Virus record (IMG/VR): IMGVR_UViG_3300029049_000006
Direction: 5' to 3' (one strand)
Source: a virus
Length of the DNA stretch: 64,000 nucleotides
Below, one piece after another: positions 32,621 through 53,144 of this stretch; within the stretch, counting starts at the first letter, position 1, and each line of letters begins with the position of its first letter. A program made the translations under genes and the position numbers. The notes under the pieces are model-generated. The model ran no database searches, had not been told where the DNA came from, and saw only the letters and a list, made by a program, of their open reading frames with translations.

Positions 32621-32744
32621 AATTTGCAATGATTGCAAATTTTTTTCGTGAATTGAATACTTTTATCTTGCAATTTTCATTTTTTAGTGTTATAACAAAC
32701 CCATCAAAGGGCGAAAGCCCTGAATCAATAAAAACATCACCAAT
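32621..32744 (+). promoter_or_regulatory. palindrome plus promoter plus structured-leader cassette (variant)
   Basis: Palindrome 32621-32642; TCTTGCAATT ... TATAAC; leader hairpin GGGC-GAAA-GCCC (32709-32720); A-rich; ATG 32745. Confidence 0.6.
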
Positions 32745-34013
32745 ATGAGCAAGACCGAAATTGATATTACCAAGCCGCTTAATCTGGCTGACCGCCAAGA
32801 ACTCCGTTTTACCGGATACGCCACGCAGAACAATGACCCGAAGCTGTCTCCGGGAGATGTCATCTATTTTCTGAAACAGGCGCGGGACGATAAAAACATC
32901 CCTGTTTATGACGTTGCCACTACCAAAAAGGGCAAGGTAGCCGTGGAAAGTCTTTACGCTGACGAATTTGAAGTTGTGGATGCGGATTCCACGCCGGAAG
33001 CCGCCCCGGTTGCGGCCCCTGCCAAAAAGAAAAAGACGGAATTCAAGAAGGTGGAGGAACCCGGCGAAGAGCAGCCCGCCCCCAAGGCTAAGAAGGCCAA
33101 AGCCGTCAAAGCGGAAGCCGCCCCTGCTAAGAAGACCAAGAAGGAAAAAGTGAAGGCCGAAGCCCCCGTGGAAGTGCAGGAGCCGCAGGAAGTCCAGGAA
33201 CCTGCAGCTGAGGCTGAATCCGTTCCCGCCGTCCAGCCCGAAGCCGTCAAGGAAGTTGAAGACATCAAGCCCGCCTCCACTCCGGAATTGGGAATGGATG
33301 CCGTAACCCTTAACTTGATTCAGGAACACGGCGGGAATGCCTGTGCCGCCGCCCTTGCCATTGCCAAGGATTCTGAGGCTAAGCGATTCCTTCTTGGCGG
33401 CGTGCTGCTGTACATCCAAAAAACGAAAGTTTACGAGGAAGAAAAGGATTCTGCCGGAGTTCCCCGCTTCACCGGGCAAAAGGGCTTTGCCATGTTCTGC
33501 GAGCAGTATATCGGGCTTTCCTATTCTTCCGCAAAATTGTACCAGCGCATCTACGCTAATTTCACCAGCATGGGCCTCGGTGTTGAGGATTTTCGGAGAG
33601 TGGGCACGGCTAAGGCCCGTGAAATTGTGCAAATGATTGAGCTGGACTTTTCCAAGGCCGACGTTGAGGAGGCTATCCATATCGGCGAGACGAAAACGCA
33701 CGAAGAACTGCACTCCCACGTAAGTTCAAAAATGCAGGATGCCGAAATTGAGGGGCATGGATTACGCGATAAGGTTAAATGCACGCTCTACAAATTTGAG
33801 GTGTTTGCTGACCAGGAAGACATCATCAACGCCGCCATCCGGCTGGCAATGGACAATGGAGACATTAAGGACACCGACCAGAACGCCCTTGGGCGCGCGT
33901 TTGTTTCCATCTGTTCCGACTATTTGCAGGCGTACAGCAAAGTGGCGCAGCCGGTGGTAGATGAAACCGAAGAATTTCAGGAATCTGTAGCCCAGGAATC
34001 CGTCAATGCTTGA
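32745..34013 (+). CDS. Lys/Ala-rich (histone H1-like) DNA-binding protein
   Basis: AAPVAAPAKKKK...PKAKKAKAVKAEAAPAKKTKKEKVKAEAP low-complexity basic region flanked by globular domains. Confidence 0.5.
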   Translation: MSKTEIDITKPLNLADRQELRFTGYATQNNDPKLSPGDVIYFLKQARDDKNIPVYDVATTKKGKVAVESLYADEFEVVDADSTPEAAPVAAPAKKKKTEFKKVEEPGEEQPAPKAKKAKAVKAEAAPAKKTKKEKVKAEAPVEVQEPQEVQEPAAEAESVPAVQPEAVKEVEDIKPASTPELGMDAVTLNLIQEHGGNACAAALAIAKDSEAKRFLLGGVLLYIQKTKVYEEEKDSAGVPRFTGQKGFAMFCEQYIGLSYSSAKLYQRIYANFTSMGLGVEDFRRVGTAKAREIVQMIELDFSKADVEEAIHIGETKTHEELHSHVSSKMQDAEIEGHGLRDKVKCTLYKFEVFADQEDIINAAIRLAMDNGDIKDTDQNALGRAFVSICSDYLQAYSKVAQPVVDETEEFQESVAQESVNA

Positions 34014-34722
34014 TATTTCCAAATTTCGGTCTGAACTGGCCCGTTTCTTTTCGGAGGACGGGCCAGGCTCCCAGCCTACCTTCCCTGATGCCTGCGAGGG
34101 CGACTTGTGCCTATGGACGGACGGGTCAGCTCTTGGAGACGCAAGGCAACTGGGAACTGGCGGAGGTTCCGCTTTTGCAGTGACAATAGTAGCTGGAGGT
34201 GAGGAGCATTATGTAGCCTCCTATGCGGAGCGCTTGGAGCCGCAATCGGAATCCGACTGCGGGGTGACGGTAAACTACGCGGAAATTAAGGCTATCCACA
34301 ACGGGCTTTCCTACCTCCAAAAATTGGACGGGGCCGAGGACAAGACCATCCATGTGTTTTCCGATTCCGCTTACGCCGTTTCCGTCCTGTCTAAATGGGT
34401 TCATCGCTGGGAACGGTCGGAGCGTACTTTGGAATCTGTGGCAAAATCCGGCTGGTTGTGCGCTGATGGGTGGCCCGTGGCTAATGCCCGCCTGATAAAA
34501 GATACGCACCGGCTGAGAGTGGAATTTTTCCGGGTTGTGTATCATAAGATCGCCGGGCATTCCGGGTATTTTTTCAACGAGCATGCCGACTGTTTGGCAT
34601 CCATCGCCAGAAACGGTCAGCTTTCTGATGCGCTGGTTGCGGATTATAATTGGCGGGGCCAGCGGATAAAATCGGTGCGCTTCGATTACACAGCTGGAAA
34701 AGTGGTGCTGGAAGAGTATTAG
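34006..34722 (+). CDS. rnhA: ribonuclease HI
   Basis: LWTDGS, NYAEIKAI, VFSDSAY, HKIAGHSGYFFNEHADCLAS match RNase H catalytic DEDD and GH.G..NE.AD.LA. Confidence 0.75.
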   Translation: MLDISKFRSELARFFSEDGPGSQPTFPDACEGDLCLWTDGSALGDARQLGTGGGSAFAVTIVAGGEEHYVASYAERLEPQSESDCGVTVNYAEIKAIHNGLSYLQKLDGAEDKTIHVFSDSAYAVSVLSKWVHRWERSERTLESVAKSGWLCADGWPVANARLIKDTHRLRVEFFRVVYHKIAGHSGYFFNEHADCLASIARNGQLSDALVADYNWRGQRIKSVRFDYTAGKVVLEEY

Positions 34723-34729
34723 CGTTTTC

Positions 34730-34868
34730 AATTTGCAATCATTGCAAATTTTTTTCTCAAAAAAGATTCTTTTTCTCTTGCAATTCATCAAAAATAATGC
34801 TAAATTGTGTTCATCAAAGGGAGGAAAGCTCCTAAGAATAAAAAACCTAAATTAGAAAGACCAAAACA
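34730..34868 (+). promoter_or_regulatory. palindrome plus promoter plus structured-leader cassette
   Basis: Palindrome 34730-34750; TTTTTCTCTTGCAATT; TAATGCTAAATT; hairpin GGAG-gaaag-CTCC 34820-34832; AGAATAAAAAACCTAAA; ATG 34869. Confidence 0.65.
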
Positions 34869-35198
34869 ATGATTATCTCCATGAACCCTTACGATAACTG
34901 GAAAATTGAAGTTAGCGAATTTTCCCATCTCAATCTGGGCATCGAAGGTGATTCCACAACGCTTGAAGATGAATCCGATGTTGCCTGGCTTCAAAATAAA
35001 ATAGAAGCCCGTCTGAATGTGCTGTGGGACCAGATTGACGCGAACCCCGGAGATAAAACTCTGGAAGGCGACATGGAAGAGTTGGAAGAAGCGCTGGAAG
35101 ACCTTGCTGCCGCCCGCGAAGAGCAGGAAGCCTACGAAATTAGGGAAGCCGAAGAATTTTTCCAGGAACAGTGCATGGAACGCTGCTACGCTTATTGA
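34869..35198 (+). CDS. hypothetical highly acidic protein
   Basis: 109 aa, ~30% Asp/Glu. Confidence 0.45.
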   Translation: MIISMNPYDNWKIEVSEFSHLNLGIEGDSTTLEDESDVAWLQNKIEARLNVLWDQIDANPGDKTLEGDMEELEEALEDLAAAREEQEAYEIREAEEFFQEQCMERCYAY

Positions 35199-35238
35199 TT
35201 AAATCTTATTTAACCCATTAAAAAACCTACTAAAAAAA

Positions 35239-35688
35239 ATGAAAAAGAACACATACGTAAGAACACGCCGTCAGGAGCCGCTGAATTCCGAAGTGAAGCA
35301 GCCGACCCCCAAAGAATTGGAAGACATCGCTACGCTGGCCCGCCAGTTTTATCAGCAGAACAAGATTAAAAATGCTGCTTCGACCAAGGAGCGTTCCATA
35401 CGGTCCCGGCTTCTCTCCTTGTGCGTGGAAGCCGGGGTGAAGTCCCAGGAAGTGGACTGCATTACCGAAGATGGAACCAAGCTCGTGCTGTCTGTCACCG
35501 TGGCCCCAGGACAGAAAAGCGTTATTGACCTGGACACGCTGAAACGGCTCATTCCCGCAGAACTGTACGAAAAATGCCTGTCCGCCACCCAGTCGAAAGT
35601 GGAGGAAGTGGCCGGAAAGAGCATTGCACTGGCCGCGAGGCGCGTAGTGTCCACGGAAATGAACGTGTCCGTGTCCACGAAAAAGTAA
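35239..35688 (+). CDS. hypothetical protein
   Basis: 149-aa ORF with AAAAAAA ATG leader. Confidence 0.4.
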   Translation: MKKNTYVRTRRQEPLNSEVKQPTPKELEDIATLARQFYQQNKIKNAASTKERSIRSRLLSLCVEAGVKSQEVDCITEDGTKLVLSVTVAPGQKSVIDLDTLKRLIPAELYEKCLSATQSKVEEVAGKSIALAARRVVSTEMNVSVSTKK

Positions 35689-35708
35689 CTTTGGTTGGGC
35701 GAAAGGGC

Positions 35709-36728
35709 ATGAAAGAATCAAGCATTCGGGAAATCCTGGCCGAACTGGGCATAGATGCGGCCCATCTGTCTCCCACCGGCTGGCTAATCTGTTCATGCCC
35801 TTTTGCCCAGGCCACGCATCAATACGGGACTGACCGCAGGCCGTCTTTCGGCGTCAAGGTGGATTTGGAATCCCCCTCAGCGTATAAATGTTTCACATGC
35901 CACGAGCACGGACTGTTCACCGGGCTTCCCATCCGGCTGGGCACGCTGCTGGGCGACCCCGGCATGTATAAGCAGGTCCGCAATCGGGCCGTGTTTCTGG
36001 AATCCGCCACCCTCCCTGACTTTGATGAGGGAGTGGCCGCCCAAACGGTCGAATCTTTGAGGGTACTTGACGTGGCAATGCTTGACATTTACCCGTCGCC
36101 AATGGATTCGGAGGCTCCACGGAAATACCTGCTTGAGCGCGGCGTTTCAGAGCACGCCGCCCTCGTCATGGATTTACGGTTTGACCCAAAAGAAAACCGA
36201 ATTCTTTTCCCGCTGTTTTCCAGAGACCGGGAACTGCTTGGATTTTCAGGCCGGTCTATCCTGTCCCCGCTTCCGGACGATACGCCAAAGATAAAGACCT
36301 ACGCCGGAGTGAAAACCGACCGCTGCCTGCTGGGCATTCATCTGATTCCGCATCAGCCGGACGGCAAACCCATATTTGTGGTTGAGGGCTTGTTTGCGTA
36401 CGCACATTTAATCTCCATTGGCGCCCGCAGATTCTGCCACCCGGTGGCCACCCTCGGATGCCACCTTTCATTTCCGCAGCGGGATATGCTGGCAATGCTG
36501 GGGCGGCCTGTGTTTCTTTGCTACGACGGTGACGTTGCGGGCACAATAGGATTGTTCGGAAAATGGAACCGGCAGGCTAAAAAGTTTATGGGTGACGGGG
36601 CGGTGGACAGATTGAAAGACCATGTGCCCACGTTTGTCTGCAAGTACCCGGTGGGGCGTTCCGACCCTGATGATTTGAGGTTGTCGGACGTAACGCAGAT
36701 GCTCGACAAGTGGAACACGGGCTATTGA
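35709..36728 (+). CDS. DNA primase (DnaG-like: CHC2 zinc finger plus TOPRIM)
   Basis: CPFAQATHQYGTDRRPSFGV...CFTCHEHG zinc-binding; IFVVEGLFAYAHL...CYDGDVAG TOPRIM. Confidence 0.7.
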   Translation: MKESSIREILAELGIDAAHLSPTGWLICSCPFAQATHQYGTDRRPSFGVKVDLESPSAYKCFTCHEHGLFTGLPIRLGTLLGDPGMYKQVRNRAVFLESATLPDFDEGVAAQTVESLRVLDVAMLDIYPSPMDSEAPRKYLLERGVSEHAALVMDLRFDPKENRILFPLFSRDRELLGFSGRSILSPLPDDTPKIKTYAGVKTDRCLLGIHLIPHQPDGKPIFVVEGLFAYAHLISIGARRFCHPVATLGCHLSFPQRDMLAMLGRPVFLCYDGDVAGTIGLFGKWNRQAKKFMGDGAVDRLKDHVPTFVCKYPVGRSDPDDLRLSDVTQMLDKWNTGY

Positions 36729-36789
36729 TAGCCACTTCTAGCCTTTTTCTTTTATAGGACGTTATAACTTTTAATTTTTTTACTCTTTT

Positions 36790-36835
36790 TTCTTGCAATA
36801 AAAAAATATCATGCTTAATATTTCATTGTTCCCAT
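36790..36835 (+). promoter_or_regulatory. putative promoter (TCTTGCAATA ... TAATATTT)
   Basis: TTG 36793-36795, 20-nt spacer, TAATATTT 36824-36831. Confidence 0.4.
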
Positions 36836-36889
36836 CATGGAACATCAGTAAAAAAACAATACTCCCATTGGAGACATTAAAAAAATAAT

Positions 36890-37915
36890 ATGAATACAAA
36901 CCAACCATCACAGAGCGCAAGGCGCGGTAAATCCGCATTGGAGCAGGCCGCAAAAAGTCAGCAGCAGCAATTCAGCCGGCAGCGCATGCCGTTCAGGTTT
37001 TTCCTCCCCAAAGGCGGCGAGGCTAAAATCGTCATTCTTGATTATGCTTTTGCCACCGACGACGGAACCGGAAACGGGCTTGTCATCAAGGAGCATAATT
37101 TGAAAAAGCCTGACGGGACGTTCGGGGATTTTCAGCCCTGCACTTCGGAGCGCGGGCATTGTGATATTTGCGAAACCTATAAGAAAGAATTCGCCCCGTA
37201 TTACGCCGTAGTCATGTCCATTATTGACTGGCGGCCGTACACCAACAAAAACGGGGAGACCGTCCAAGGCTCCAAAAAGTTGCTGGTCATTAAAATGTGG
37301 CAGCGCGACAAGTGGTACGAGCTTCAAGAAGTCGCGTTCGCGCAGAACGGCAAGCGCGGCATGCGGGGCATGACCCTCCGGATGAAACGGAGTATGGACG
37401 CGAAGAGCAGCAGCATTGGCGAGCCTGTGGCGTTTACTTCCCCCGCATCAATGGCCGGGCGCATGTGCGGATTCATGTCGGAGGAAGCTATGTTGATACG
37501 ATTTGGCGGGCAGGATATTGTTGGACGCGACGGCAAGGTCTATCAGAAGGCCGGAGACGGCATCAAGCCGTTCAACTACGACGAGCTTTTCCCGGAACCG
37601 GAACCCATCAATGAATTTTCCAACTCCAATTCCCGGTCTTCCGGTGATGCGGATTTTGGTGACGATGAAGACTTCGGTCAGGATTTGCAGGACGGTAACA
37701 GCGCGTCCGGAGATTTCGACCCGGAAGATTTCCGCCCCTCGGCAGACCAGGACGGCGGGGAAGATTACCTTAACGCCGACGCGGATTTTGCCGGTGATGA
37801 AGATTTTGAGCAGGAGCCTCCCGCCCGCACCAGAGGACGTCGCGTGCCTGACCCGGAAGAACCGGGGCAGCCGGGCCAAAGCCAGGATGATTTCGATGAC
37901 GACATCCCCATGTAG
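36890..37915 (+). CDS. single-stranded DNA-binding protein (gp32-like Zn region; acidic tail ending DDDIPM)
   Basis: C-terminal ...SQDDFDDDIPM mirrors bacterial SSB tip DDDIPF; CTSERGHCDIC putative Zn site; long acidic C-terminal domain. Confidence 0.55.
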   Translation: MNTNQPSQSARRGKSALEQAAKSQQQQFSRQRMPFRFFLPKGGEAKIVILDYAFATDDGTGNGLVIKEHNLKKPDGTFGDFQPCTSERGHCDICETYKKEFAPYYAVVMSIIDWRPYTNKNGETVQGSKKLLVIKMWQRDKWYELQEVAFAQNGKRGMRGMTLRMKRSMDAKSSSIGEPVAFTSPASMAGRMCGFMSEEAMLIRFGGQDIVGRDGKVYQKAGDGIKPFNYDELFPEPEPINEFSNSNSRSSGDADFGDDEDFGQDLQDGNSASGDFDPEDFRPSADQDGGEDYLNADADFAGDEDFEQEPPARTRGRRVPDPEEPGQPGQSQDDFDDDIPM

Positions 37916-37943
37916 TCGCAACCATTAACCTTACCTGCCGGAA

Positions 37944-39368
37944 ATGGACGCTATTTTATCTCAACTTTGCTGGATTCCAAAAATGCGGTTAACGCCGACA
38001 CAGGAAGCGGAATTGATTTCCGACCTGACTATTTACCCACGGCTTTCCGGGTTTTCGGATGATGCAGCTCTGAAAAAGATTCAAACGTTCATTTCCGGCA
38101 AAACTTATATCGGCGTGCCGTGCTTTTACGGGCGGCAGTGGTGCGAGAAGCACCGCATTGCCATTAAGGATGACACGTCTTCCGGGTTTAACATTTCCCG
38201 GTACATCCGCAGGTTGCCCGACCCGCATCATCCGTCCGCTTCCCAGGGGCAGGAAGAATTCTTTTCTTCCCTTCTGGAAACGGTTAAATCCAACAATACC
38301 GTTTTGGCGGAAGCCCCCACCGGAAGCGGAAAAACCGTGACGGCGTTGAATGCCATTGGTCGCCTGGGGCGTTCCGCGCTGATAGTCGTCCCGAACGGTC
38401 CGCTGATGGAACAATGGAAAAAAGAGGCTATCCGGCATCTTGGACTGACCGAGGATGAAGTCGGCGTAATTGGCGGGGGCAAATCCGTTTGGAAGGACAA
38501 GCCGGTGGTGGTGGCTATCATCCACAATATCTGCATGGCCTCCATGCCGGATGCGTTTTACCGGGCGTTCGGAATTACGGTATGGGATGAAGCCCACGTT
38601 GTGGGTGCGGAATGGTTTAGCCTGTCCACGCAGCACCTGCGTTCAAAATACCGGATTGCCATTACCGCCACCCCAAACCGTTCTGATGGGTGCATGCGAA
38701 TTGTTACGGACGCATTCGGCCCCGTTGCCGTAAGGCATAGTGGGAACGCGGTTCCGCTGATTTACGCCCCGTTGAGTTACAATCTCCCGGCTAAACTGCG
38801 GGCCTGGGCTGACCGTGCCCAGGGTAAAGAGCTGTCCAGGGTGCTAAAGGCGTTGACCGCTGACCTGCCGCGTAATATTAAAATCGGGAGGCTGGCGCTT
38901 GCCGGATATAAAAAAAACCGTAATATACTGCTGATTTCCGACCGCATTTCCCATTTGGAGGCCATGCAGGGCATTTTAGTTCATCTCGGCATTCCGTCCG
39001 AACACATAGGCATGTTTTCCGGGGCGGTAAAGGGCGACAAGGACGTATCCGGGAAAAAAAAGTTGACCAAAAAACAAAAACTGGATGATGTGGTCAAAAA
39101 TCCTAAATACCGGGTGATTCTGGCGACTTATGCAATGATGAAACTCGGCATTGATATTCCCCGGCTTGACATGGGAATCGACATCAGCCCGAAGAGTGAG
39201 GCCGTGCAGACTGTGGGGCGTATCAGAAGGCCGTTCCCGAATAAGCCGACTCCGGTCTGGTTTACGGTTGTCGATTCCAGCCGGAAATTCCAGGCCCTGT
39301 ACCGCAGCCGGGAACGGGAACTGCTGTCGAAGGGCAGCGTAGAAATAAGACCGATTAAAACTTTATGA
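37944..39368 (+). CDS. SF2 DNA helicase (DEAH-type)
   Basis: LAEAPTGSGKT Walker A, VWDEAH, ITATP, QTVGRIRR motif VI. Confidence 0.75.
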   Translation: MDAILSQLCWIPKMRLTPTQEAELISDLTIYPRLSGFSDDAALKKIQTFISGKTYIGVPCFYGRQWCEKHRIAIKDDTSSGFNISRYIRRLPDPHHPSASQGQEEFFSSLLETVKSNNTVLAEAPTGSGKTVTALNAIGRLGRSALIVVPNGPLMEQWKKEAIRHLGLTEDEVGVIGGGKSVWKDKPVVVAIIHNICMASMPDAFYRAFGITVWDEAHVVGAEWFSLSTQHLRSKYRIAITATPNRSDGCMRIVTDAFGPVAVRHSGNAVPLIYAPLSYNLPAKLRAWADRAQGKELSRVLKALTADLPRNIKIGRLALAGYKKNRNILLISDRISHLEAMQGILVHLGIPSEHIGMFSGAVKGDKDVSGKKKLTKKQKLDDVVKNPKYRVILATYAMMKLGIDIPRLDMGIDISPKSEAVQTVGRIRRPFPNKPTPVWFTVVDSSRKFQALYRSRERELLSKGSVEIRPIKTL

Positions 39369-39910: not shown

Positions 39911-39920
39911 CTCTTTTCCT

Positions 39921-39939
39921 ATTTGCAATGATTGCAAAT
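39921..39939. promoter_or_regulatory. 21-bp palindrome copy
   Basis: ATTTGCAATGATTGCAAAT followed by T7. Confidence 0.8.
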
Positions 39940-39972
39940 TTTTTTCGCAAAAACCAGAAACAGAAATAAACC

Positions 39973-41576: not shown

Positions 41577-41588
41577 GGTGGGGGGGGT

Positions 41589-41948: not shown

Positions 41949-41949
41949 C

Positions 41950-43749: not shown

Positions 43750-43893
43750 AATTTGCAATCATTGCAAATTTTTTTCGCTGATTGTGTAATTTTATCTTGC
43801 AATTTCTAAAAAATAATGCTAAATTACATTCATCAAAGGGAGGGAATCCCTGAGAGAAAAAACCTAAAAACCTAAAAAACCTGTTAGACTAAA
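43750..43893 (+). promoter_or_regulatory. palindrome plus promoter plus structured-leader cassette
   Basis: Palindrome 43750-43770; TCTTGCAATTTCTAAAAAATAATGCTAAATTAC; hairpin AGGGA-gggaa-TCCCT 43837-43851; A-rich; ATG 43894. Confidence 0.65.
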
Positions 43894-44481
43894 ATGAATG
43901 CGATTGAAACCATGAGCCAGAAAGAGCTGAAAGAATATTACGCCGCTCTCACTTGCGGGGAAGGAACCAAGGCGGCTAAATGGACTATATCCGGTGCTTT
44001 TGAGATTGTAAAATTGTCTGACGGAAAACTTTATAAAATAGAAAAGCACCAGCTGGAAACTTCCTTCTGCTTTGGCTACGACGTAACGGAAGAATCGGAA
44101 CGCCGCGCGGATTCCCTGGCAGCGGACGCTAAAACTTATGAGGCGTTTTTGGCCGCCAATCTGGAAACCATAGCGCGGGACATTAACCGGCTGGAAAAGG
44201 CTATCGCCAATGGCAATACACCGCAGTTCGACGGCACGAAAGCCTTCTACTCCTGCAACGCTTATGTCAACGGACCAGATACGGCGGTATGCGTATTTTT
44301 CATGAACTGGATGAACGATTTCCGGGGTATGGAAAACACACACCTTACTTCCGTGTCCGACCTTGAGCTGATTATTGCCGCCTTGAAGCGCAAGGCGGAA
44401 AACGTCCGGAAGCGTTGCCTTTCCTACTGGAAAAAATACGGGGCCAGCAAGCTTAATGTCTGGACGTATTACCGTGATTGA
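43894..44481 (+). CDS. hypothetical protein
   Basis: 195-aa ORF directly after cassette. Confidence 0.45.
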   Translation: MNAIETMSQKELKEYYAALTCGEGTKAAKWTISGAFEIVKLSDGKLYKIEKHQLETSFCFGYDVTEESERRADSLAADAKTYEAFLAANLETIARDINRLEKAIANGNTPQFDGTKAFYSCNAYVNGPDTAVCVFFMNWMNDFRGMENTHLTSVSDLELIIAALKRKAENVRKRCLSYWKKYGASKLNVWTYYRD

Positions 44482-44484
44482 ACA

Positions 44485-44623
44485 TTTGCAACGATTGCAA
44501 ATTTTTTTCTCAAAAAGATTCTTTTTTCTCTTGCAATTTCTAAAAAAGAATGATAAATTGAGTTCATCAAAGGGAGGGAAACCTCCCAAGAATAAAAAAC
44601 CTAAAAACCTGAAAGACAAGATT
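44485..44623 (+). promoter_or_regulatory. palindrome (1 mismatch) plus promoter plus structured-leader cassette
   Basis: ATTTGCAACGATTGCAAAT; TCTTGCAATTTCTAAAAAAGAATGATAAATTGAG; hairpin GGGAGG-GAAA-CCTCCC 44572-44587; ATG 44624. Confidence 0.65.
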
Positions 44624-44836
44624 ATGAACAACAAAGAAACATTCTATCTGGTTGAAGTTTACCACCTCGGAACTGCTGTTGGCAGCCTTATTTCCCTTGA
44701 CCATGTGCACCGTTGCAAGTCCCTGGAATCTGCGAAAGACTTTGGTTCCATCATGAAAGAAAAAAATGGGTGGTTTGAAGTAACGGAAATTACTTCCAAA
44801 GGCCGTTCCATTGTGTTTGACTCCCGCAACAACTAA
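44624..44836 (+). CDS. hypothetical small protein
   Basis: 70 aa. Confidence 0.4.
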   Translation: MNNKETFYLVEVYHLGTAVGSLISLDHVHRCKSLESAKDFGSIMKEKNGWFEVTEITSKGRSIVFDSRNN

Positions 44837-44848
44837 CCCGTCAGGACG

Positions 44849-45037
44849 ATGAAAGTACAGGCTAAAGTTATTACCGAACAGGAGTGCAAATGGCACGGGG
44901 TTGCCCTTCAAGATATGGAAGTGGCGGAAATCCGGGTTGCTGCCTGGTTCCTTACTGAAAAGTCTTGTGGAATAAAAAACCGTCAATATGATTTTGAAGG
45001 GGTCAAGGCTAAAAAAAAGCGGCATCCTCGGAAGTAA
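44849..45037 (+). CDS. hypothetical small protein
   Basis: 62 aa. Confidence 0.3.
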   Translation: MKVQAKVITEQECKWHGVALQDMEVAEIRVAAWFLTEKSCGIKNRQYDFEGVKAKKKRHPRK

Positions 45038-45276
45038 CGCAAATGCTGGTTCTGGGAGTCGTTTTTTCATGAAATCAAAAGCACAAGCCGCCATTGATAT
45101 CCTTCTCAAAATGCGGAACACGGAATGGGAAAATCGGTATAAAGAAAACGGCATTAAGTTTGAAACCTGCGTGAATATCTAAAATCCTCAAGCCCCTCTT
45201 TGGAGGGGCAAGACCCCTCCACCGCAACCAGAAAAACTTTTCAGCAGTAAAAATTTTCGGTGGTACTAATTAGGTT

Positions 45277-45324
45277 CTGCCCCCTTTTCCGGCATTCCGT
45301 TGCTGGGAAGGGGGCAGTTTTTTT
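45277..45324 (+). terminator. intrinsic terminator
   Basis: 10-bp stem CTGCCCCCTT/AAGGGGGCAG, ~21-nt loop, T7. Confidence 0.55.
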
Positions 45325-45488
45325 GCGTCAATTTGTAGTGGTATTTTTAATTTTAGCGCACAAATAACTATATATTGCGGCTATTTTCGTAAACGGTTGA
45401 CTTTGAGAAAAATAAACTCTTGAACCGGTTTGGCGGCAAGTTAAGATGCCGGAGGTTAAACACTAGTTTGGCTGTCTTCTATCTTTTC

Positions 45489-45532
45489 GGCCCCTAATTC
45501 GGAGTGATGCCCGGATTAGGGGCCTTTTTTTT
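45489..45532 (+). terminator. strong intrinsic terminator
   Basis: 10-bp perfect stem GGCCCCTAAT/ATTAGGGGCC, 16-nt loop, T8. Confidence 0.7.
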
Positions 45533-45536
45533 CTTC

Positions 45537-45681
45537 AATTTGCAACCATTGCAAATTTTTTTCTCAAAAAGATTCTTTTTTCTCTTGCAATTCAGAAAAA
45601 ATAATGCTAAATTACATTCATCAAAGGGAGGGAATCCCTAAGAGAAAAAACTTAAAAACCTAAAAAACCTGTTAGACTAAA
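45537..45681 (+). promoter_or_regulatory. palindrome (1 mismatch) plus promoter plus structured-leader cassette
   Basis: AATTTGCAACCATTGCAAATT; same cassette as 43750; ATG 45682. Confidence 0.65.
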
Positions 45682-45951
45682 ATGAATACCGTAACCGAAA
45701 CTGAAATCAAGTTAGGCTCCAAAATTAAACCGACTTGGAAGCTTTCCAGGGTGCGTGCGATTGTCGGAAAGGAAACCGAAAAGGCAATCCGTATTGACCT
45801 CGATTATAGCAGCAGGTCTGAATATCATTGGCTTCCAAAAAGCCTTATTGCAGCTATCGAAGAAAAAGAGGACGGAACATGGGCCGGGGATTCTTACATT
45901 ACTCTTCCCACCTGGTTTTGCATCGAAAATGGCTTTGTGACCGAACAATAA
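45682..45951 (+). CDS. hypothetical protein
   Basis: 89 aa. Confidence 0.45.
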   Translation: MNTVTETEIKLGSKIKPTWKLSRVRAIVGKETEKAIRIDLDYSSRSEYHWLPKSLIAAIEEKEDGTWAGDSYITLPTWFCIENGFVTEQ

Positions 45952-45958
45952 AACGCGT

Positions 45959-46153
45959 ATGAAATTCTTTCTGTCTTTCGTTTCCGAAGCAATGGGCGTT
46001 GCCGTGATTGGGTATATGGCCGTATGTGCTTACTGGCTTCTATTTTGCTATCTGGCAACCGACCAGGAGTTTAATTCAACCCTTTATCCTCCCCCGGCAT
46101 ATGTCCAGGCCGCTTTTAACGCGGCGGATTCCCTTTACCACCTGATATTTTAA
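45959..46153 (+). CDS. hypothetical small membrane protein
   Basis: 64 aa, two hydrophobic helices. Confidence 0.35.
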   Translation: MKFFLSFVSEAMGVAVIGYMAVCAYWLLFCYLATDQEFNSTLYPPPAYVQAAFNAADSLYHLIF

Positions 46154-46155
46154 TT

Positions 46156-46758: not shown

Positions 46759-47509
46759 TTCCCGGCCCGTTGAGGGCAGTCTGGTAAAACCGGGCTTTTA
46801 CTCTGTGCTGGAAAAATTGCCGCTGGAATACATAGGCCCCTCCGAACGGTTTTTCCTGTGGTTGGAATTTGCTTTTTCCGTCATGTCCGGAACGCCCCTG
46901 AATTCTTCCGTTACCGAAAAAATGAGCGCGGGAAGGGAAGGTTATGAGGCTATCCAGCGCGGGTTTCTGGACTGCATCAGGCTTCTTGGGGACGACATGG
47001 AGCGGAAGCCCTATGAAGACCTGCTGGGAGGTTACCATGAAATGTTGAACAGTCAGATGACCCGGACGGCAAACGGTCAATTTTATACCCCGATGCATGT
47101 CTGCCGTCTTATGGCTAAAATCACCGTATCGGAACAGCTCGTGGAAAAACTGAAACTTGGGGAAGTGATAAAAATGAACGAGCCCGCCTGCGGCTCCGGG
47201 CGCACTATGCTTGCCGTAGCGGAAATACTTTCCGAACACCGCTCCAAGATGCGTGTGATTTGCACCGACATCGACATCCGGGCCTGCTGGATGTGTTTCA
47301 TCAACTTGACTATGTGGGGCATCCCGGCAACGGTCATCCACGGGGATACGCTGTCTGGGAAAGAGTGGGGGCGCTGGGTCAATATGTTTTGGTTGATTGG
47401 AGAGGCGGAAAGAAAACGCCAGCTCAAGGTCAAAAAAATTATAGACGCAGTGCAGAAGCTTTGCCCTGATGAACAAAATATTCCGGCATTTCCCCGGTGC
47501 AGAGACTAA
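46706..47509 (+). CDS. HsdM/N6-adenine-methyltransferase-like protein lacking catalytic motif IV
   Basis: GQFYTPMHVCRLMAKI (TP motif), NEPACGSGRTML (motif I), ICTDIDIRACWMCFINLTMWGI; no NPPF/DPPY downstream before stop; start may be ATG 46883. Confidence 0.45.
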   Translation: MFPSSPICFTMASVCSPDSRPVEGSLVKPGFYSVLEKLPLEYIGPSERFFLWLEFAFSVMSGTPLNSSVTEKMSAGREGYEAIQRGFLDCIRLLGDDMERKPYEDLLGGYHEMLNSQMTRTANGQFYTPMHVCRLMAKITVSEQLVEKLKLGEVIKMNEPACGSGRTMLAVAEILSEHRSKMRVICTDIDIRACWMCFINLTMWGIPATVIHGDTLSGKEWGRWVNMFWLIGEAERKRQLKVKKIIDAVQKLCPDEQNIPAFPRCRD

Positions 47510-48095
47510 CAAAAAAATGAAAGCTAAGAAAAGAGTATTTAACCCGGAAATGCGGGAAGAAATCCGCACGTTTATTACCGACATGATTAGCCGGGGGGCG
47601 GCCTATAATTCCATTGATTTTATCCTGGATTCCCTGGCCGACGATATTAAATCCCTCCGGGAATCCCCAGACTTGTCGCGGAAAGCGGAAACGGAAACCG
47701 CCATTGCCTGGTGTGAGGAACTTTGCAAGCATATTGCGCGTTTGCGCGGAAAATATAACTCCGTAAAAAATCCGTATGACGAAGGTCTGGCGGCCTGCAA
47801 CGTATTGGCTCAAATCAGGATAGACTTGTTGGAACGGTCCACCTCGAAAGAATTTCACCGTAATAACAGCCCGGACGGGAAGACACCGCGGTCAAGCCCT
47901 AATATCAATTATGAGCTTTGCATCGCCATCACGTCCGCTGCGATAAATAATCTGTACCGTCAGATTGATGCGGCGGTGAATTTGCATAACATGAATATCC
48001 TCCTGGGCTTTTACGACGACATCCAGAATGACCGAATCACGCCCCATCTTACCGGATGGGGAGGAAGCCCCGCCGGGGAACCTGAAACCCGTTAA
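47469..48095 (+). CDS. hypothetical protein
   Basis: Alternative start 47517. Confidence 0.4.
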   Translation: MNKIFRHFPGAETNKKMKAKKRVFNPEMREEIRTFITDMISRGAAYNSIDFILDSLADDIKSLRESPDLSRKAETETAIAWCEELCKHIARLRGKYNSVKNPYDEGLAACNVLAQIRIDLLERSTSKEFHRNNSPDGKTPRSSPNINYELCIAITSAAINNLYRQIDAAVNLHNMNILLGFYDDIQNDRITPHLTGWGGSPAGEPETR

Positions 48096-48123
48096 GTTTA
48101 CTTAAACGTCAAAAAAGAAAAAG

Positions 48124-48756
48124 ATGAATACAGCACCAAAAAAACATTCCTGGGTAAGCTGGTTTTACCCGTTTCCCGCCCATTGCGTTATTCTAAACCG
48201 GCTATTCTGCCGGCTTGCAATAGCGAGTCTGGCGCTTCTGGTCGTCCTGCCTCTTTACTGGTTTTTCTTCCCGGACTTGTGGGAGGGCTGGGTGACGGAA
48301 GGGCAGACCATATATTGGATGCTGATTGCCGTTATTTCTGCGGTGGAATGTTCCGACGTTTGGATTTCCCGGTTGAAAATATCCTTGTTCCGGAGGCATT
48401 GCTCCAAGAAAAAAATGCACGATTTATACTTCCGGCAGCAGGTACGGCAGCTTATTATCCAGGAGCGGGGCGTAGTTTACTTTTCCGACTATTTAATTGA
48501 CGGAGAATTTACGCGGAAGCATTTTTTATTTTTATACTGGGAATTTAAATGGGGCCGCTTTCTGACTTTCCGGGAACCCTGGAAAGTGTATGTCGTGATG
48601 CACGAGGATAAGGATTGTGCGTCTATTTTTTCCCGCGATACCTCTTCGGATTTTCATTTGGAGCTTGCTAGACATTTGCCGAGCATTAAAATGGCCGACG
48701 CACACGTTTGTGGCCGCGCCATTTCTATCGACTATGACCATCCCGCTGTTCCGTAA
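48124..48756 (+). CDS. hypothetical membrane protein
   Basis: N-terminal hydrophobic helices. Confidence 0.4.
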   Translation: MNTAPKKHSWVSWFYPFPAHCVILNRLFCRLAIASLALLVVLPLYWFFFPDLWEGWVTEGQTIYWMLIAVISAVECSDVWISRLKISLFRRHCSKKKMHDLYFRQQVRQLIIQERGVVYFSDYLIDGEFTRKHFLFLYWEFKWGRFLTFREPWKVYVVMHEDKDCASIFSRDTSSDFHLELARHLPSIKMADAHVCGRAISIDYDHPAVP

Positions 48757-49201
48757 AAAAAAATATGTGCCGAATCCTGATTTAATTTTTCCCGATACGC
48801 AGGATGAATATCTGTTCAGATTCCGGGAAGCCTCAATGGCTCACAAGGCTATCCATTTTGAGATAACCGGATATCCGGGGGATTCAAGGGCATTTTTGTA
48901 CAAAGTCCACCACCTCGACGGTACTTGCATGGAGCACCGCTGCCCCAACAGGCGGGCAGTTAGCCGCCTGTCCGCTTATGACGATTTGTTCTCAATATAC
49001 TGCAACCGGAAATTTTGGTTGTACGTCAAAGACTACGTTGACCCCAAGTGGTTCCGCTCCATGAGCACGATTTTATTTCTGGCCGCAAAAAAAGGGCATC
49101 GGATGCGCCGGGAAGATTTGATTCATAAAGTGTTTTTGGAGGGCTACTGCTACGACCCGGATGTCGATTACGACGGGTTGACGGTGGCTTTATTTTCCTG
49201 A
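48734..49201 (+). CDS. hypothetical protein
   Basis: ATG 48734 in frame of ORF 48617..49201. Confidence 0.35.
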   Translation: MTIPLFRKKKYVPNPDLIFPDTQDEYLFRFREASMAHKAIHFEITGYPGDSRAFLYKVHHLDGTCMEHRCPNRRAVSRLSAYDDLFSIYCNRKFWLYVKDYVDPKWFRSMSTILFLAAKKGHRMRREDLIHKVFLEGYCYDPDVDYDGLTVALFS

Positions 49202-49216
49202 TAGACTTCCCGGCAT

Positions 49217-50071
49217 ATGGCAACTGATAATGATGACGAGTTTTCCGGTTTTTTCGGGGACGATTCCGGCGGATTTTTCGATGAACCCCAGGAACCTTCC
49301 AGCGCCCCAGATACCCCGGAATCACAGGAGGAAGCCCCGCCGGAGGAACCTGACGAAGACGAGGATGACGGGGAACTTAATGAGCTTGCCGGGACTGGCG
49401 CCGGAACGGTCGCACGCCTGAACCCGGAGATTCGACATCAGATTATGGCCCAGGCCAATTCCCGCGCCTGGACGCGCCATGAACGCCATGTTGTCATGCG
49501 CCGGGCCATGTCGGCGGGAAAGCTGGAAGAGATTATTGACTGGTACCCGCGTTCCGGACAGAGCATCCACATTTTATCTTGTGGGGAGGTAGATTTGTTT
49601 TCCTACTTGCATTTCATGCTCCGTCAACGCCCCTATGCCTACATTTTGCTTTCGACATTCAGCCTCGGCTACATGGAAATTCGCAACCTGCACGAGTATC
49701 TGGAAAAAGGAGTGATTGGCCGCCTGGATGTGTATGCCGGAAGCATTTTCCGCAACCGGACTATCCGGACGCGGGAATATGATGCGCTGGTTGCCCTGCA
49801 CCAGAGATTTCCGCATTGTTTTTGCGGTCTGGCAAATGTCCACGCGAAAGTCATTGCCGGGATTGACCGGGACAATGGGGAAGGCGACTTTGTTGTAGAG
49901 GCCAGTGCTAATGCCAACCTGAATTTCCGCGTTGAGCAGGCTTGTCTGACGATGGACACCGATTTGGCGCTTTTTTACAAGGAGGCGTTTGACGGCGTGG
50001 ATTGCCCGCAGGATGCCCAGTATTTTAAGGATGTGAGGCGGACTCCGTGGGTGGTTGACCGGAAAAGCTGA
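49217..50071 (+). CDS. hypothetical protein with acidic N-terminus
   Basis: 284 aa. Confidence 0.4.
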   Translation: MATDNDDEFSGFFGDDSGGFFDEPQEPSSAPDTPESQEEAPPEEPDEDEDDGELNELAGTGAGTVARLNPEIRHQIMAQANSRAWTRHERHVVMRRAMSAGKLEEIIDWYPRSGQSIHILSCGEVDLFSYLHFMLRQRPYAYILLSTFSLGYMEIRNLHEYLEKGVIGRLDVYAGSIFRNRTIRTREYDALVALHQRFPHCFCGLANVHAKVIAGIDRDNGEGDFVVEASANANLNFRVEQACLTMDTDLALFYKEAFDGVDCPQDAQYFKDVRRTPWVVDRKS

Positions 50072-50206
50072 TTTGCAATCATTGCAAATTTTTCCCGGCA
50101 ATCCTGATTTTTTCTCTTGCAATTTGTCAAAAAGAATGCTAACTTATATTCATCAAAGGGAGATAAAACCTTAAAAATAAAAAACCTAAAAACCTGTTAG
50201 AATAAG
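50071..50206 (+). promoter_or_regulatory. palindrome plus promoter plus leader cassette
   Basis: ATTTGCAATCATTGCAAATT abutting stop 50069-50071; TCTTGCAATTTGTCAAAAAGAATGCTAACTTATATTC; degenerate hairpin; ATG 50207. Confidence 0.6.
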
Positions 50207-50479
50207 ATGACCGGAATTACACTGCAAGACGGAGTTTCAGAAATCAATAAGTATTTTCAGAAGTATTGCCGCCCCAGTAAGGTGCGTAACGCTTCTCTTA
50301 TTTCTCAGCATTCCGTAATGATAAAGGCAGACCCCAGTGACATCAAAGACGATTCCAGCTGTGATAAGGCCCTCCGCCATTTGAAGCAGCTCGTGCAGGA
50401 CATGACCTGCATGGAGGTGGAATCCGTGGATATTGACCGCTATTCCAGCGGGTACGAGTTCACTTTTACCTTGCGTTGA
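50207..50479 (+). CDS. hypothetical protein
   Basis: 90 aa. Confidence 0.4.
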   Translation: MTGITLQDGVSEINKYFQKYCRPSKVRNASLISQHSVMIKADPSDIKDDSSCDKALRHLKQLVQDMTCMEVESVDIDRYSSGYEFTFTLR

Positions 50480-50538
50480 TTTTTGCATTGCGGAGGGGGG
50501 AACAATCCCCCTCCGAGAATAAAAATCTGACAGCAACT

Positions 50539-50760
50539 ATGGAGCCGCAGCGGGACAGGGACGGGTACTGGCGCAGTTTATCGGAATCTATCAATAAAAT
50601 TGCGGAAGACTACCGGCTATCCAGTGCCGAGCTTGCACAGAGCGCGATTGCTTTTCACCGCGCCGCGCAGCAGCTGCTGGAACTGCGGAAAAAGTCAAGC
50701 AATCCTCCCAAGTCTCCGGAAGTAATAGTACGCCGGGTTCCGCGTAAATTCCGCGGCTAA
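50539..50760 (+). CDS. hypothetical small protein
   Basis: ATG 50539 in frame of ORF 50476..50760. Confidence 0.3.
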   Translation: MEPQRDRDGYWRSLSESINKIAEDYRLSSAELAQSAIAFHRAAQQLLELRKKSSNPPKSPEVIVRRVPRKFRG

Positions 50761-50791
50761 ATGACAATTTTTTTTTAACAAAAATATACAT

Positions 50792-51124
50792 ATGGAAGAC
50801 GAGCCGAAAATTGCATCACCAAGAAAAATTAAACCGGTGTTCCGGAAATGGGGATTTGACTACCGCCTAATCCGAAGGCAGGGGAATGTGGTCTTGTACG
50901 AGCAGAAATCCAAATACGGGAATATCATATCGTATGAGGTCATGCGCGTCCAAACGGTCAAGTCCCCCACGGAGTTTCATCAGGTCGGCGACGAGTACCT
51001 TCCCGGAACCAACTCCTGGGGAACTCTGGGCTGGACACTCGGCACGCTGAAAGATGCTGAAAAGCGTTTTGCCGAAATAGTGTACCGGTATGAGCCTTCC
51101 GAGGTAAAAATCTCAAGACGCTAG
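50792..51124 (+). CDS. hypothetical protein
   Basis: 110 aa. Confidence 0.4.
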   Translation: MEDEPKIASPRKIKPVFRKWGFDYRLIRRQGNVVLYEQKSKYGNIISYEVMRVQTVKSPTEFHQVGDEYLPGTNSWGTLGWTLGTLKDAEKRFAEIVYRYEPSEVKISRR

Positions 51125-51144
51125 CGCGGGCTGGCTACCGACTG

Positions 51145-51318
51145 ATGTTTCTGCAGTTTTTAGCTTCCGGGGCCGTGACAGTTCTAGGCGCTCAAATGTT
51201 GCTTTGCACCTTTTCCTGCATCAGACACCGGATGCTGGTTGGAGCAATCCTTAACTGGCTGGCGGGCATTGCGCTGATTAAATGCGGGTATTATTTATTA
51301 CTGGATATTTTCATGTAG
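51145..51318 (+). CDS. hypothetical 57-aa membrane peptide
   Basis: MFLQFLASGAVTVLGAQMLLCTFSCIRHRMLVGAILNWLAGIALIKCGYYLLLDIFM; below ORF-track cutoff. Confidence 0.25.
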   Translation: MFLQFLASGAVTVLGAQMLLCTFSCIRHRMLVGAILNWLAGIALIKCGYYLLLDIFM

Positions 51319-51319
51319 T

Positions 51320-51437
51320 TAAAAAATTATTTTTTGTGTTTTTTATCTTGCAATTTCTGAAAAATAATACTAAAGTACATTCATCGGGGGGGAGAGAAAA
51401 ACCCTGAGAATAAAAACCTGAAATATAATAAAACACG
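51320..51437 (+). promoter_or_regulatory. promoter plus leader cassette without palindrome
   Basis: TCTTGCAATTTCTGAAAAATAATACTAAAGTACATTCATCGGGGGGGAGAGAAAAACCCTGAGAATAAAAACC; ATG 51438. Confidence 0.55.
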
Positions 51438-51821
51438 ATGAGCAACAATTATTGTTTAAAAGCTTCCGGCAAGCAGATTGTCGAACTCGCGCGGTTAATG
51501 GATGTGCATTCCAGACGCACCGGATTTGATGAGCCGATATTGTACCTGGGAGATGCCTGCCGCCTGGAACCCATTCCCTACTCCAAAGTGTATGCGACTT
51601 GCGACACGCCCCGGATATTTTCCGCATGTCTGGTGGATGAATCCAGCTCCCATGACCTGATGGAGCTGACTGACCTGTTTGGTGTGGTAGGCTTGTTCCC
51701 TCATCACCCCCGGCTGCTTCCGTCTTATTTCAGCACGCAAAAATTAAAGTTCTGCGGGGAATATGTCTCCGTATATTGCGCGTATATTTACGTTCCTGAA
51801 CATCCTGATTTTTTGCAATGA
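51438..51821 (+). CDS. hypothetical protein
   Basis: 127 aa; stop codon lies inside palindrome. Confidence 0.4.
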   Translation: MSNNYCLKASGKQIVELARLMDVHSRRTGFDEPILYLGDACRLEPIPYSKVYATCDTPRIFSACLVDESSSHDLMELTDLFGVVGLFPHHPRLLPSYFSTQKLKFCGEYVSVYCAYIYVPEHPDFLQ

Positions 51822-51831
51822 TTGCAAATTC
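51811..51831. promoter_or_regulatory. 21-bp palindrome copy
   Basis: TTTTGCAATGATTGCAAATTC. Confidence 0.75.
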
Positions 51832-51866
51832 AAAAACTTTTTTATCAATTACAATAATTTAATTTT

Positions 51867-52934
51867 ATGAAGTTCTACACGAAAATCCCTAAGAATCCTT
51901 CCAACGTTTCCCACACCTCTTCCCTTACAGGCGAATATCAGGAATATCTTAAACACGGGTTTATTTACGATAAACTTCCAGCTTACAAACCAAAGCGAAA
52001 AACGATGTTCCAGGCGCTTTCTTCCATAGCAGGGCTGAAAGCTACCCGGAATCCGGGCTACTTTTCTCCGGTAGTGCATAACAATATCGCTTACGCTACA
52101 AACGGTTGTATTCTGGTCTGGATAGACTTGTCCCTGGTGGACGAGGCGGAAAGAATGGATGAAGGCATTCATTTTAATTCGACATTGTGGACAGGAGACC
52201 TGGACAAAACGGAAATGGTGGAAGCTTCCATTCGCCGGCTGGCGGAATCCAGCTGGGGCGAGTTTAAACAGCTGCTGGAAAAATCCGGGGAAGCCGATTA
52301 CGTCACACGGCAATTCCGCATTGAGCATATGCCGGTGCTGAAAAAAGCCGGGCAAAGTTTTTATTGTCTGGATGCGGGTACACAGGCAGTTTGGGCCGCA
52401 GTCAATATTCCGGTGTGCCCGATTGTCCACGTATCAAGTGCGTCCCTATACACGTGGATGGATGCCGTTTATTCCCTGATGCCGGAAAAACAGTTTCCCG
52501 CCATTACCGCGCACCTGTCCGTTCCGAAGGAATCCGGGCGGAAAAATAGCATCTATCTATCTGTGGAAGGGTTTGAATACAACCGGCTTGGCGCCTTCGT
52601 TTATGGTACTGACCATTTTCCGGAAAGGCTGACCTACCTATGGACTGACCCGGATGCGGACCCCAAAGCCGGAGGGCTGACTTTGCCGATACAAAAAGAC
52701 CCGGAGAACGATGGCCCAAGATGGAGTGAAGCGCGTCTTGTCCCTGTACATGACCCGACGGACCGTTCCATGATTATTTCCGTGCCGGGAAGAGTAAGTG
52801 ATTGCGTCCAGGTAAAAGGAAACAATGGAGGCCCGGAACTGCATTTTTACTGTGATGAGCGTTCTATGCGCCGGTTTTATCAGTCTTTAGGGGAATACTT
52901 TAGCCGACGGGACGCGGGAAAAAGTGAATCATAA
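51867..52934 (+). CDS. hypothetical protein
   Basis: 355 aa. Confidence 0.45.
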   Translation: MKFYTKIPKNPSNVSHTSSLTGEYQEYLKHGFIYDKLPAYKPKRKTMFQALSSIAGLKATRNPGYFSPVVHNNIAYATNGCILVWIDLSLVDEAERMDEGIHFNSTLWTGDLDKTEMVEASIRRLAESSWGEFKQLLEKSGEADYVTRQFRIEHMPVLKKAGQSFYCLDAGTQAVWAAVNIPVCPIVHVSSASLYTWMDAVYSLMPEKQFPAITAHLSVPKESGRKNSIYLSVEGFEYNRLGAFVYGTDHFPERLTYLWTDPDADPKAGGLTLPIQKDPENDGPRWSEARLVPVHDPTDRSMIISVPGRVSDCVQVKGNNGGPELHFYCDERSMRRFYQSLGEYFSRRDAGKSES

Positions 52935-53006
52935 ATAGCCGCAAGGGAACTCCGGGGAAATAATCTTCCCCGGAGCTTTTTTATTCCTCCCCCGATTTCC
53001 TTTTCC

Positions 53007-53144
53007 AATTTGCAACGATTGCAAATTTTTTTCTCAAAAAAGATTTTTTTCTCTTGCAATTTCTAAAAAAGAATGATAAATTACATTCATCAAAGGGAGG
53101 GAATCCCTGAGAGAAAAAAACAAAAAACCTAAATTACTGATACC
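53007..53144 (+). promoter_or_regulatory. palindrome (1 mismatch) plus promoter plus structured-leader cassette
   Basis: AATTTGCAACGATTGCAAATT; cassette as 44485; hairpin AGGGA-gggaa-TCCCT; ATG 53145. Confidence 0.65.

Follow-up and report, generated by a model that had tools for sequence, protein, structure and literature searches.

Short hairpins close to the 5' end of long leaders are known from the ompA and papA leaders and from the 5' stabilisers of B. subtilis (Emory, Bouvet and Belasco, cited in PMC3997798); they are sequence-independent, vary in stem and loop, and are linked to strongly expressed transcripts. In T4-like phages, promoter-early stem-loop (PeSL) cassettes are repeated composites of a stem-loop or terminator and a promoter. 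They occupy a plastic region, among small genes with no known function, where cassettes are exchanged and bounded modules are gained or lost between close strains (PMC2839356, PMC4122927). The nut sites of lambdoid phages (boxA and boxB, used by N) consist of a linear conserved segment and then a small purine-loop hairpin, near early promoters and upstream of terminators. Here we describe a leader hairpin with a likeness to each of these, in the repeated promoter/leader cassettes of a 64,000-nucleotide stretch of viral DNA, IMG/VR record IMGVR_UViG_3300029049_000006 (the whole stretch is referred to as the window).

The hairpin is present, positionally constant, strand-specific and non-random, and we consider it probable that it is a selected RNA stem-loop. 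The best reading is that it is a sequence-independent, 5'-proximal leader stem-loop of paralogous cassettes that drive small genes. Its sequence, stem length and loop all vary with the pairing kept, which implies that the presence of a stem is selected, and not a specific surface for protein recognition.

The repeated unit is about 140 nt long, and about ten paralogous copies are known from the window and outside it. Eight cassettes, a PeSL-type feature, lie at 32.6-53.1 kb of the window, and further copies are found at L022:7506 and at L102:5405-5300 (minus strand). The genes that they drive are small and all of unknown function. The unit starts with TTTGCAAYSATTGCAAA, a palindrome of 17 bp that is perfectly conserved, and has T7 and a T-rich stretch after it. 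Then come a -35-like element, CTTGCAATT, a 17-nt A-rich spacer ending in TG, and the -10-like TAAATT, within TGnTAAATT. The Bacteroides -33 element is TTTG and the -7 box is TAnnTTTG, to which TAAATT is a partial match. Downstream of the -10-like box there are four nucleotides, TCATCAAAG, the hairpin, an A-rich leader of 40-60 nt, and an ATG with no Shine-Dalgarno (SD) sequence. In the seven cassettes of the window that bear the palindrome, TCATCAAAG or CCATCAAAG is at 32701, 34811, 43830, 44564, 45618, 50150 and 53087. In the representative cassette (see Table 1), the palindrome TTTGCAATCATTGCAAA and T7 occupy 43752-43775 and TTGCAA 43797-43802; after a 17-nt spacer containing TG follow TAAATT at 43820-43825 and TCATCAAAG at 43830-43838, with the predicted start at A 43832.

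Standard and Bacteroides promoter geometry both point to the A of TCATC, 7 nt past TGnTAAATT, as the predicted start of the RNA, which is probably made by the host RNA polymerase. The transcript would then begin with AUCAAAGGGAG, and the first pair of the stem would be at about +4 to +7. Several cassettes have a G+C-rich terminator just upstream (43723, 45489 and 52950), which indicates that each cassette opens its own transcription unit. The leaders share a conserved A5-6CC motif and AAAACCU repeats. The motif, as A5-6C(C), lies 7-12 nt past the stem in every leader, and the repeats occur in most (for example 43852-43893, 44588-44632 and 50173-50206); they may enhance translation that starts independently of SD sites, or serve as a site for a protein or RNase.

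In every leader folded, the minimum-free-energy structure given by RNAfold contains the hairpin, at the equivalent position. For whole leaders the z-scores are modest (+0.24 to -3.25), with shuffled leaders retaining pairable G-runs and CCU motifs. When the first 10 nt were fixed and the next 22 nt shuffled, p was below 0.01 for each of the 14 variants tested. The folding energies sum to -103 kcal/mol for the sense RNA, compared with -70 kcal/mol for the antisense; on the antisense strand, variants V9 and V10 collapse. The G.U pairs make the hairpin strand-specific. The greater stability of the sense RNA argues for an RNA element of the transcribed strand, not a DNA palindrome.

To the copies in the window were added those of about 25 strain contigs, which brought the number of distinct leader starts to 24 and that of distinct hairpin variants to 15. 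The strain copies came from pattern scans of IMG/VR, metagenomes and GTDB genomes, and from look-ups with window proteins. The IMG/VR and GTDB scans returned only contigs of the same species (94-99% identity) and chance matches; from the metagenomes, scanned with a loose pattern, L142 alone was useful among the matches listed, and the other palindrome-containing loci found by the scans belong to an unrelated repeat. The protein look-ups supplied ten more strain segments of 20 kb and one more divergent strain (TerL 95% identity); the phage is present in many assemblies.

Across these variants the 5' arm is near-constant, AAAGGGAG(GG), i.e. (A)GGGAG(GG). It is part of a stretch of high conservation between the -10-like box and about +12, and is conserved like the -35 and -10 boxes. 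The 3' arm differs in sequence, length and distance and yet pairs: the arms seen are GCCCU, CUCCU, UCCCU, CCUCCC, CCCUCCU, CUUCCU, CCUUCUC, CCUCCU, CCCU, CCUU and CUCUCUUU. The stems have 4-8 bp and the loops, which are purine-rich, 3-12 nt (GAAA, GAAAG, GGGAA, AAUAA, AAAAA, AAA, and others of 8-12 nt); V14 (L102), for example, has an 8-bp stem over a 12-nt loop. That many 3' arms at varied distances restore pairing with one fixed 5' arm is more persuasive than the formal counts given below.

The earlier note on this DNA had proposed a stem-loop in the cassette leaders, conserved by compensatory changes and with GNRA-like loops. Folding, fixed-arm shuffles and the wider set of variants all bear out a stem-loop kept in the sense-strand leader RNA just past the predicted start. 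Its four hairpins are where it placed them, although the repeat copies start at 45625 and 53094 and not at 45628 and 53090, a shift of 3-4 nt. The pairing is indeed kept, but "compensatory" was an overstatement: of its four variants, GGGC/GCCC alone has a genuine double substitution, and the rest are differing lengths or registers of complement to one near-constant 5' arm. GNRA loops are not conserved, being found in only 4 of the 15 variants. It was right that GGGAGG is not a working SD site, because the genes of this phage have no SD signal.

Quantitative support for covariation is more limited. MAFFT misplaced the 3' arms, and its alignment was therefore replaced by a hand-made, N-padded one. 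In a core of seven pairs, 68 of 69 cells are paired (98.6%), with seven cells changed from G-C to G.U and one broken cell. Two double-sided changes occur, each in a single sequence: G-C to A-U in V9 (L256), and A-U to C-G in V1, which has the sole C-G at stem position 7 among the variants. Compared with V4, V9 (AGGAGG-GAAA-CUUCCU) has the basal G-C to A-U change plus one G.U pair, and compared with V8, V10 (L258) has two G.U pairs. The covariation score of 0.152 compares with 0.113 ± 0.013 for shuffled columns and at most 0.098 for slid partners; wider structures gave similar results. A polymorphism count within the V3 family was discarded as circular, the family having been chosen by its hairpin sequence. 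As the alignment was fitted to the structure and the paralogues recombine, this lends support but does not amount to strong covariation as R-scape would define it.

The cassettes differ between strains in a way that bears on the independence of these copies. A single slot may hold V3 or V7, V4 or V11, V2 or V3, or V3 or V12, depending on the strain, and modules bounded by cassettes are present in some strains and missing in others (L265, L269 and L273). Such gain or loss of modules and exchange of hairpin alleles can be seen in strain segments L264-L273, in slots near 8150, 8884 and 17405. From these comparisons the cassettes appear to act as recombination points, as PeSLs do, and with their allele swaps and the presence or absence of modules they behave like PeSL cassettes (PMC2839356, PMC4122927).

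Two observations elsewhere in the window touch on the position of the hairpin. A hairpin of unrelated sequence at 36827..36844 lies downstream of another promoter, CTTGCAAT...TGcTTAATAT (at 36792), with a long A-rich leader, and occupies the equivalent relative place, behind a TTGCAA promoter. By contrast, there is no hairpin at two apparently leaderless TTGCAA promoters (22245 and 25090), which fits a structural role for the hairpin at the start of long leaders. At these two CTTGCAATT promoters (22245-22285 and 25090-25128) the predicted start is on or beside the A of the ATG (TATAGTTTtctcATG and TATATTACtgacATG), suggesting leaderless mRNAs.

What might such a stem do? Its most likely role would be to protect or insulate the 5' end of an unusually long, unstructured, A-rich leader that has no SD site. 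The 3' arm is a freely evolving pyrimidine tract, held complementary to the 5' arm. The stem could hinder decay that depends on the 5' end, by impeding pyrophosphate removal, 5' sensing of the RNase E/G type, or the progress of a 5'-exonuclease; it could also prevent base pairing between the G-rich transcript start and the CCU repeats that come later in the leader. Protection specifically from 5'-end-dependent decay is a reasonable possibility, to which we give a little less than even credence.

There are a number of points that weigh against a selected, protective stem-loop. The alignment used for counting was hand-fitted to the structure, and 13 of 500 column shuffles equal the observed covariation score. 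The copies represent few independent events, because the cassettes are homogenised and swapped by recombination. One strain (L268, V12) has an uncompensated stem change, C to G, the sole one seen. V5, V6 and V7, among them 4-bp stems with loops of 8-9 nt, are marginally stable, and the V5 leader folds no better than its shuffles (z +0.24), although with the 5' arm fixed p is 0.007. The cassette and hairpin are absent from the relatives fetched (L262, L263, L275-L278, L302 and L303), which with present data makes a family-wide covariation analysis or an independent phylogenetic test impossible. With the start as predicted, 5-6 nucleotides, AUCAA(A), would stay unpaired on the 5' side of the stem. 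In the ompA/papA work, classical protective hairpins reportedly had to be almost terminal. RppH-type enzymes require just 2-3 unpaired nucleotides (PMC3997798), and would thus still be admitted by a tail of 5-6, which weakens the reading as a classical 5'-terminal stabiliser.

An alternative is that the stem only neutralises the transcript start. The G-rich, SD-like start (AAAGGGAGG) would be needed for the promoter or for initiation, and the 3' arm would simply lock it away, so that it could neither pair with the AAAACCU repeats nor occlude the start-codon region, which has to be free of structure for initiation without an SD site; decay would be unaffected. The conservation pattern agrees with this, in that the 5' arm is conserved like the promoter boxes while the 3' arm is free and the loops and stem length are unconstrained; several CCU motifs in the leader could pair with GGGAGG, and this type of host uses unstructured A-rich leaders (PMC7366714). 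However, the requirement for a G-rich start is only presumed, V5 to V7 leave much of GGGAG unpaired, and the hairpin at 36827-36844 has no G-run to neutralise. We regard this explanation as possible but unlikely. Somewhat less likely still is that the stem has no selected function and is a passenger of duplication or gene conversion, for instance a relic of a terminator-like stem, with the covariation produced by a few lineage events. Cassettes are swapped between loci and strains (V3/V7, V4/V11 and V3/V12 in the same slot), the double substitutions number only two, each seen once, the leader element is absent from the relatives examined, and in one of these, at L275:7094, the same stem (AAAGGGAGG-GUAACG-CCUCCCUUU, with a U-run after it) serves as a plain terminator. 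Drift should nevertheless leave many broken stems, while only 1 of 69 cells is broken; at least 11 distinct 3' arms at varied distances all pair with the same 5' arm, every variant tested beats its fixed-arm shuffles, and the G.U pairs respect the sense strand.

The hairpin might instead be read by a protein: AUCAAAG and the hairpin would form a site like the boxA/boxB of nut, or an entry site for a regulator or RNase, and coordinate the cassette transcripts. The linear AUCAAAG is nearly invariant beside a variable hairpin, some loops are GAAA or GAAAG, like purine-rich boxB loops, and there are terminators between cassettes. Yet loops of 3-12 nt with no common sequence, on stems of 4-8 bp, would not be tolerated by a loop reader of the N type; the variability of loop (GNRA in 4 of 15) and stem length argues against any protein that, like lambda N, reads the loop. 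With a promoter for every gene block, a need for read-through is not obvious, and a scan of small early open reading frames (ORFs), of weak sensitivity, gave no convincing in-frame arginine-rich protein. Rfam 15 gave no match at the gathering threshold anywhere in the window, and at E<1 only chance-level matches away from the hairpins. A protein site seems quite unlikely to us. More doubtful again is a shared module in which invariant single-stranded AUCAAAG plus the stem serves as a nut-like site, or as the place where an early protein of the phage or a factor of the host docks. If it were true, the module would let a Bacteroides phage control all its cassette transcripts together, in elongation, decay or translation; we know of no such system in phages of Bacteroidota.

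A last group of explanations places the element in DNA, as an operator or cruciform, or takes TCATCAAAGGGAG as the promoter of a T3/T7-like single-subunit polymerase starting at GGG, with the 5' arm at +1. The cassettes do carry another DNA palindrome, which is perfectly conserved, and CATCAAAGGGAG resembles the end of the T3 promoter, CACTAAAGGGAGA. G.T wobble positions and arms of variable length do not suit an operator, and the conservation reaches the -35-like CTTGCAATT, well beyond a T7-type promoter. The four ORFs of more than 800 amino acids in the window (tape measure, PolA, AAA+/intein and BACON-domain, by Pfam) include no single-subunit RNA polymerase, and an extra 14 kb outside the window has no ORF longer than 459 amino acids. 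With no such polymerase in the parts examined, the promoter resemblance is probably coincidental, and we reject the T3/T7-like promoter; the whole DNA-level group we consider highly improbable. Also rejected were a terminator on either strand, as no U-run follows the stem in either orientation, and a working SD site, as the phage shows no SD usage.

The distant relatives give some context for the promoter. Searches with TerL, PolA and a 210-amino-acid protein show a gap in identity, from at least 95% to about 50% for the next match; the nearest relatives outside the species have 43-48% identity in PolA and 45-51% in TerL. The PolA loci (L275-L278) have the order DnaB-PolA-helicase-RecA, as in the window. 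Paired TTGCAA motifs (TTGCAAnnnTTTGCAA) followed by promoter-like boxes, CTTGCAAA, recur in L275-L277, L302 and L303, so that TTGCAA appears to be a regulatory word shared by the relatives examined, even though the cassette is not conserved. In L275, of the closest other species, the structure at 7094-7130 is an ordinary intrinsic terminator whose G-rich arm is the same as that of the leader hairpin, and the leader of one relative has an unrelated 10-bp hairpin.

The 17-bp palindrome is not confined to the cassettes. The pattern TTTGCAA-N3-TTGCAAA has 18 copies in the window, where about 0.5 would be expected, and often lies just 10-35 nt 5' of the start codons of structural or replication genes that have no cassette promoter. 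Its arms are invariant and its centre varies; as RNA, its stem would have about -6 kcal/mol. This suggests a site for a dimeric DNA-binding regulator or a late-promoter element, and not merely a weak terminator.

All the long ORFs of the window are on the + strand (Table 1). RNase H, RecA, RuvC, N6-methyltransferase, ParB-like and DpdA/TAGT-like proteins were assigned by synteny with annotated strain contigs. No deposited phage matches the window at the DNA level, the best PolA matches being 31-43% identical, and no tRNA genes were found in the window. The phage resembles the candidate family "Flandersviridae" in features that match its published description (PMC8008677): the strain genomes are of 84-89 kb, there is a BACON domain within the structural block, and a DnaB-primase-PolA module is followed by about 20 kb of genes of unknown function. 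According to spacers in clustered regularly interspaced short palindromic repeats (CRISPR), the hosts of that family are Bacteroides and Parabacteroides (PMC8008677). An SD signal is absent from the phage genes (15 of 71, against a background of 13%), and their upstream regions are A-rich. Bacteroidota mRNAs have no SD sites and depend on A-rich leaders, and the phage thus agrees with a host of this phylum (PMC7366714).

It is worth adding some further observations on the window. The intein inside the AAA+ ATPase gene has an HNH endonuclease domain (Pfam Intein_splicing, HNH_3). A gene of 311 amino acids at 59481-60416 matches by position the DpdA/TAGT-like protein of the strain contigs, a hint of 7-deazaguanine DNA modification; in the relatives, PTPS, radical-SAM and GTP cyclohydrolase I genes adjoin TerL. 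Two paralogous gene segments 4 kb apart, 59104-59608 and 63100-63656, are 72-90% identical. The cassette-rich blocks of small genes (44001-46000 and 50001-56000) have a G+C of 43-49%, compared with about 53% elsewhere, which is consistent with accessory genes gained or swapped by recombination.

Table 1 Positions of the hairpins, cassettes, genes and promoter-associated motifs. Coordinates are those of the window unless prefixed by a locus.
Feature	Coordinates	Strand	Details
Hairpin V1, AGGGC-GAAA-GCCCU	32708..32721	+	-9.4 kcal/mol, z -3.25; core 32709-32720 plus A-U 32708/32721
Hairpin V2, GGGAG-GAAAG-CUCCU	34819..34833	+	-6.9 kcal/mol; basal G.U pair 34819/34833
Hairpin V3, AGGGA-GGGAA-UCCCU	43837..43851	+	
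Hairpin V4, GGGAGG-GAAA-CCUCCC	44572..44587	+	-12.8 kcal/mol, z -2.48
Hairpin V3, second copy	45625..45639	+	
Hairpin V5, AAGG-GAGAUAAAA-CCUU	50156..50172	+	weak; 4 bp, 9-nt loop; missed by the earlier note
Hairpin V6, after TCATCGGGGGGG	51384..51407	+	6 bp, 12-nt loop, -8.6 kcal/mol; missed by the earlier note
Hairpin V3, third copy	53094..53108	+	
Unrelated hairpin, TGUUCC-CAUCAU-GGAACA	36827..36844	+	leader -10.7 kcal/mol; missed by the earlier note
Cassette 1	32623..32744	+	upstream of 422-amino-acid gene of unknown function
Cassette 2	34732..34868	+	
Representative whole cassette	43752..43893	+	ATG at 43894
Cassette 4	44485..44632	+	
Cassette 5	45539..45681	+	
Cassette 6	50072..50206	+	
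Cassette 7	51347..51437	+	promoter and leader only, no palindrome
Cassette 8	53009..53144	+	
Major capsid protein	4016-5674	+	
Tape-measure protein	10679-13867	+	
BACON-domain protein	14723-17206	+	
AAA+ ATPase gene with intein	22549-25047	+	Pfam scan
DnaB-type helicase and PolA	28473-32601	+	
Helicase	37944-39368	+	
TerL	56766-58256	+	
Palindrome sites 1-9	3843, 9867, 13882, 17677, 20526, 22498, 26296, 32623, 34732		
Palindrome sites 10-18	39922, 43752, 44485, 45539, 50072, 51812, 53009, 58270, 62600		
TTGCAA pairs in relatives	L275:4689-4769, L276:2045-2179/4150-4336/12980-13084, L277:9742-9840, L302:2639-2700, L303:5209-5260		

Set beside the described systems, the leader hairpin departs from each in some respect. 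The predicted tail of 5-6 nt is longer than elements of the ompA/papA type tolerate, where the stem lies within about 0-4 nt of the 5' end; the host here is of Bacteroidota type, with decay pathways that have been little studied; and the 5' arm is conserved in sequence, because it is part of a promoter-proximal block. With respect to nut sites, the loops here are unconserved (3-12 nt), in contrast to the GNRA-like pentaloop of boxB, there is no similarity to boxA, each unit has its own promoter, and the small-ORF scan, with its weak sensitivity, identified no N-like protein.

If the stem-loop does protect or insulate the leaders, then the cassette would be a compact and naturally optimised expression unit for Bacteroidota, combining a strong promoter with a 5' hairpin and a leader that is A-rich and SD-free. 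Few such parts have been characterised for Bacteroidota, and the rules of mRNA decay in this group are barely known.

With PeSLs the likeness lies in organisation. The sequences are unrelated: the elements here are TTGCAA, TGnTAAATT and the palindrome TTTGCAAYSATTGCAAA, which depart from the early promoter and terminator consensus of T4-like phages, and the promoter is of the TTGCAA / TGnTAAATT type, for a host without SD sites. The upstream stem-loop is here a perfectly conserved 17-bp palindrome, which also stands alone before structural and replication genes, and the leader hairpin downstream of the start is an extra element, outside the PeSL definition. The hairpin is thus a real but ordinary leader stem-loop in PeSL-like cassettes, and not conceptually new; what these cassettes offer is a case in which promoter/stem-loop modules shuffle genes in an abundant, uncultured lineage of gut phages, like the PeSLs of T4-like phages.

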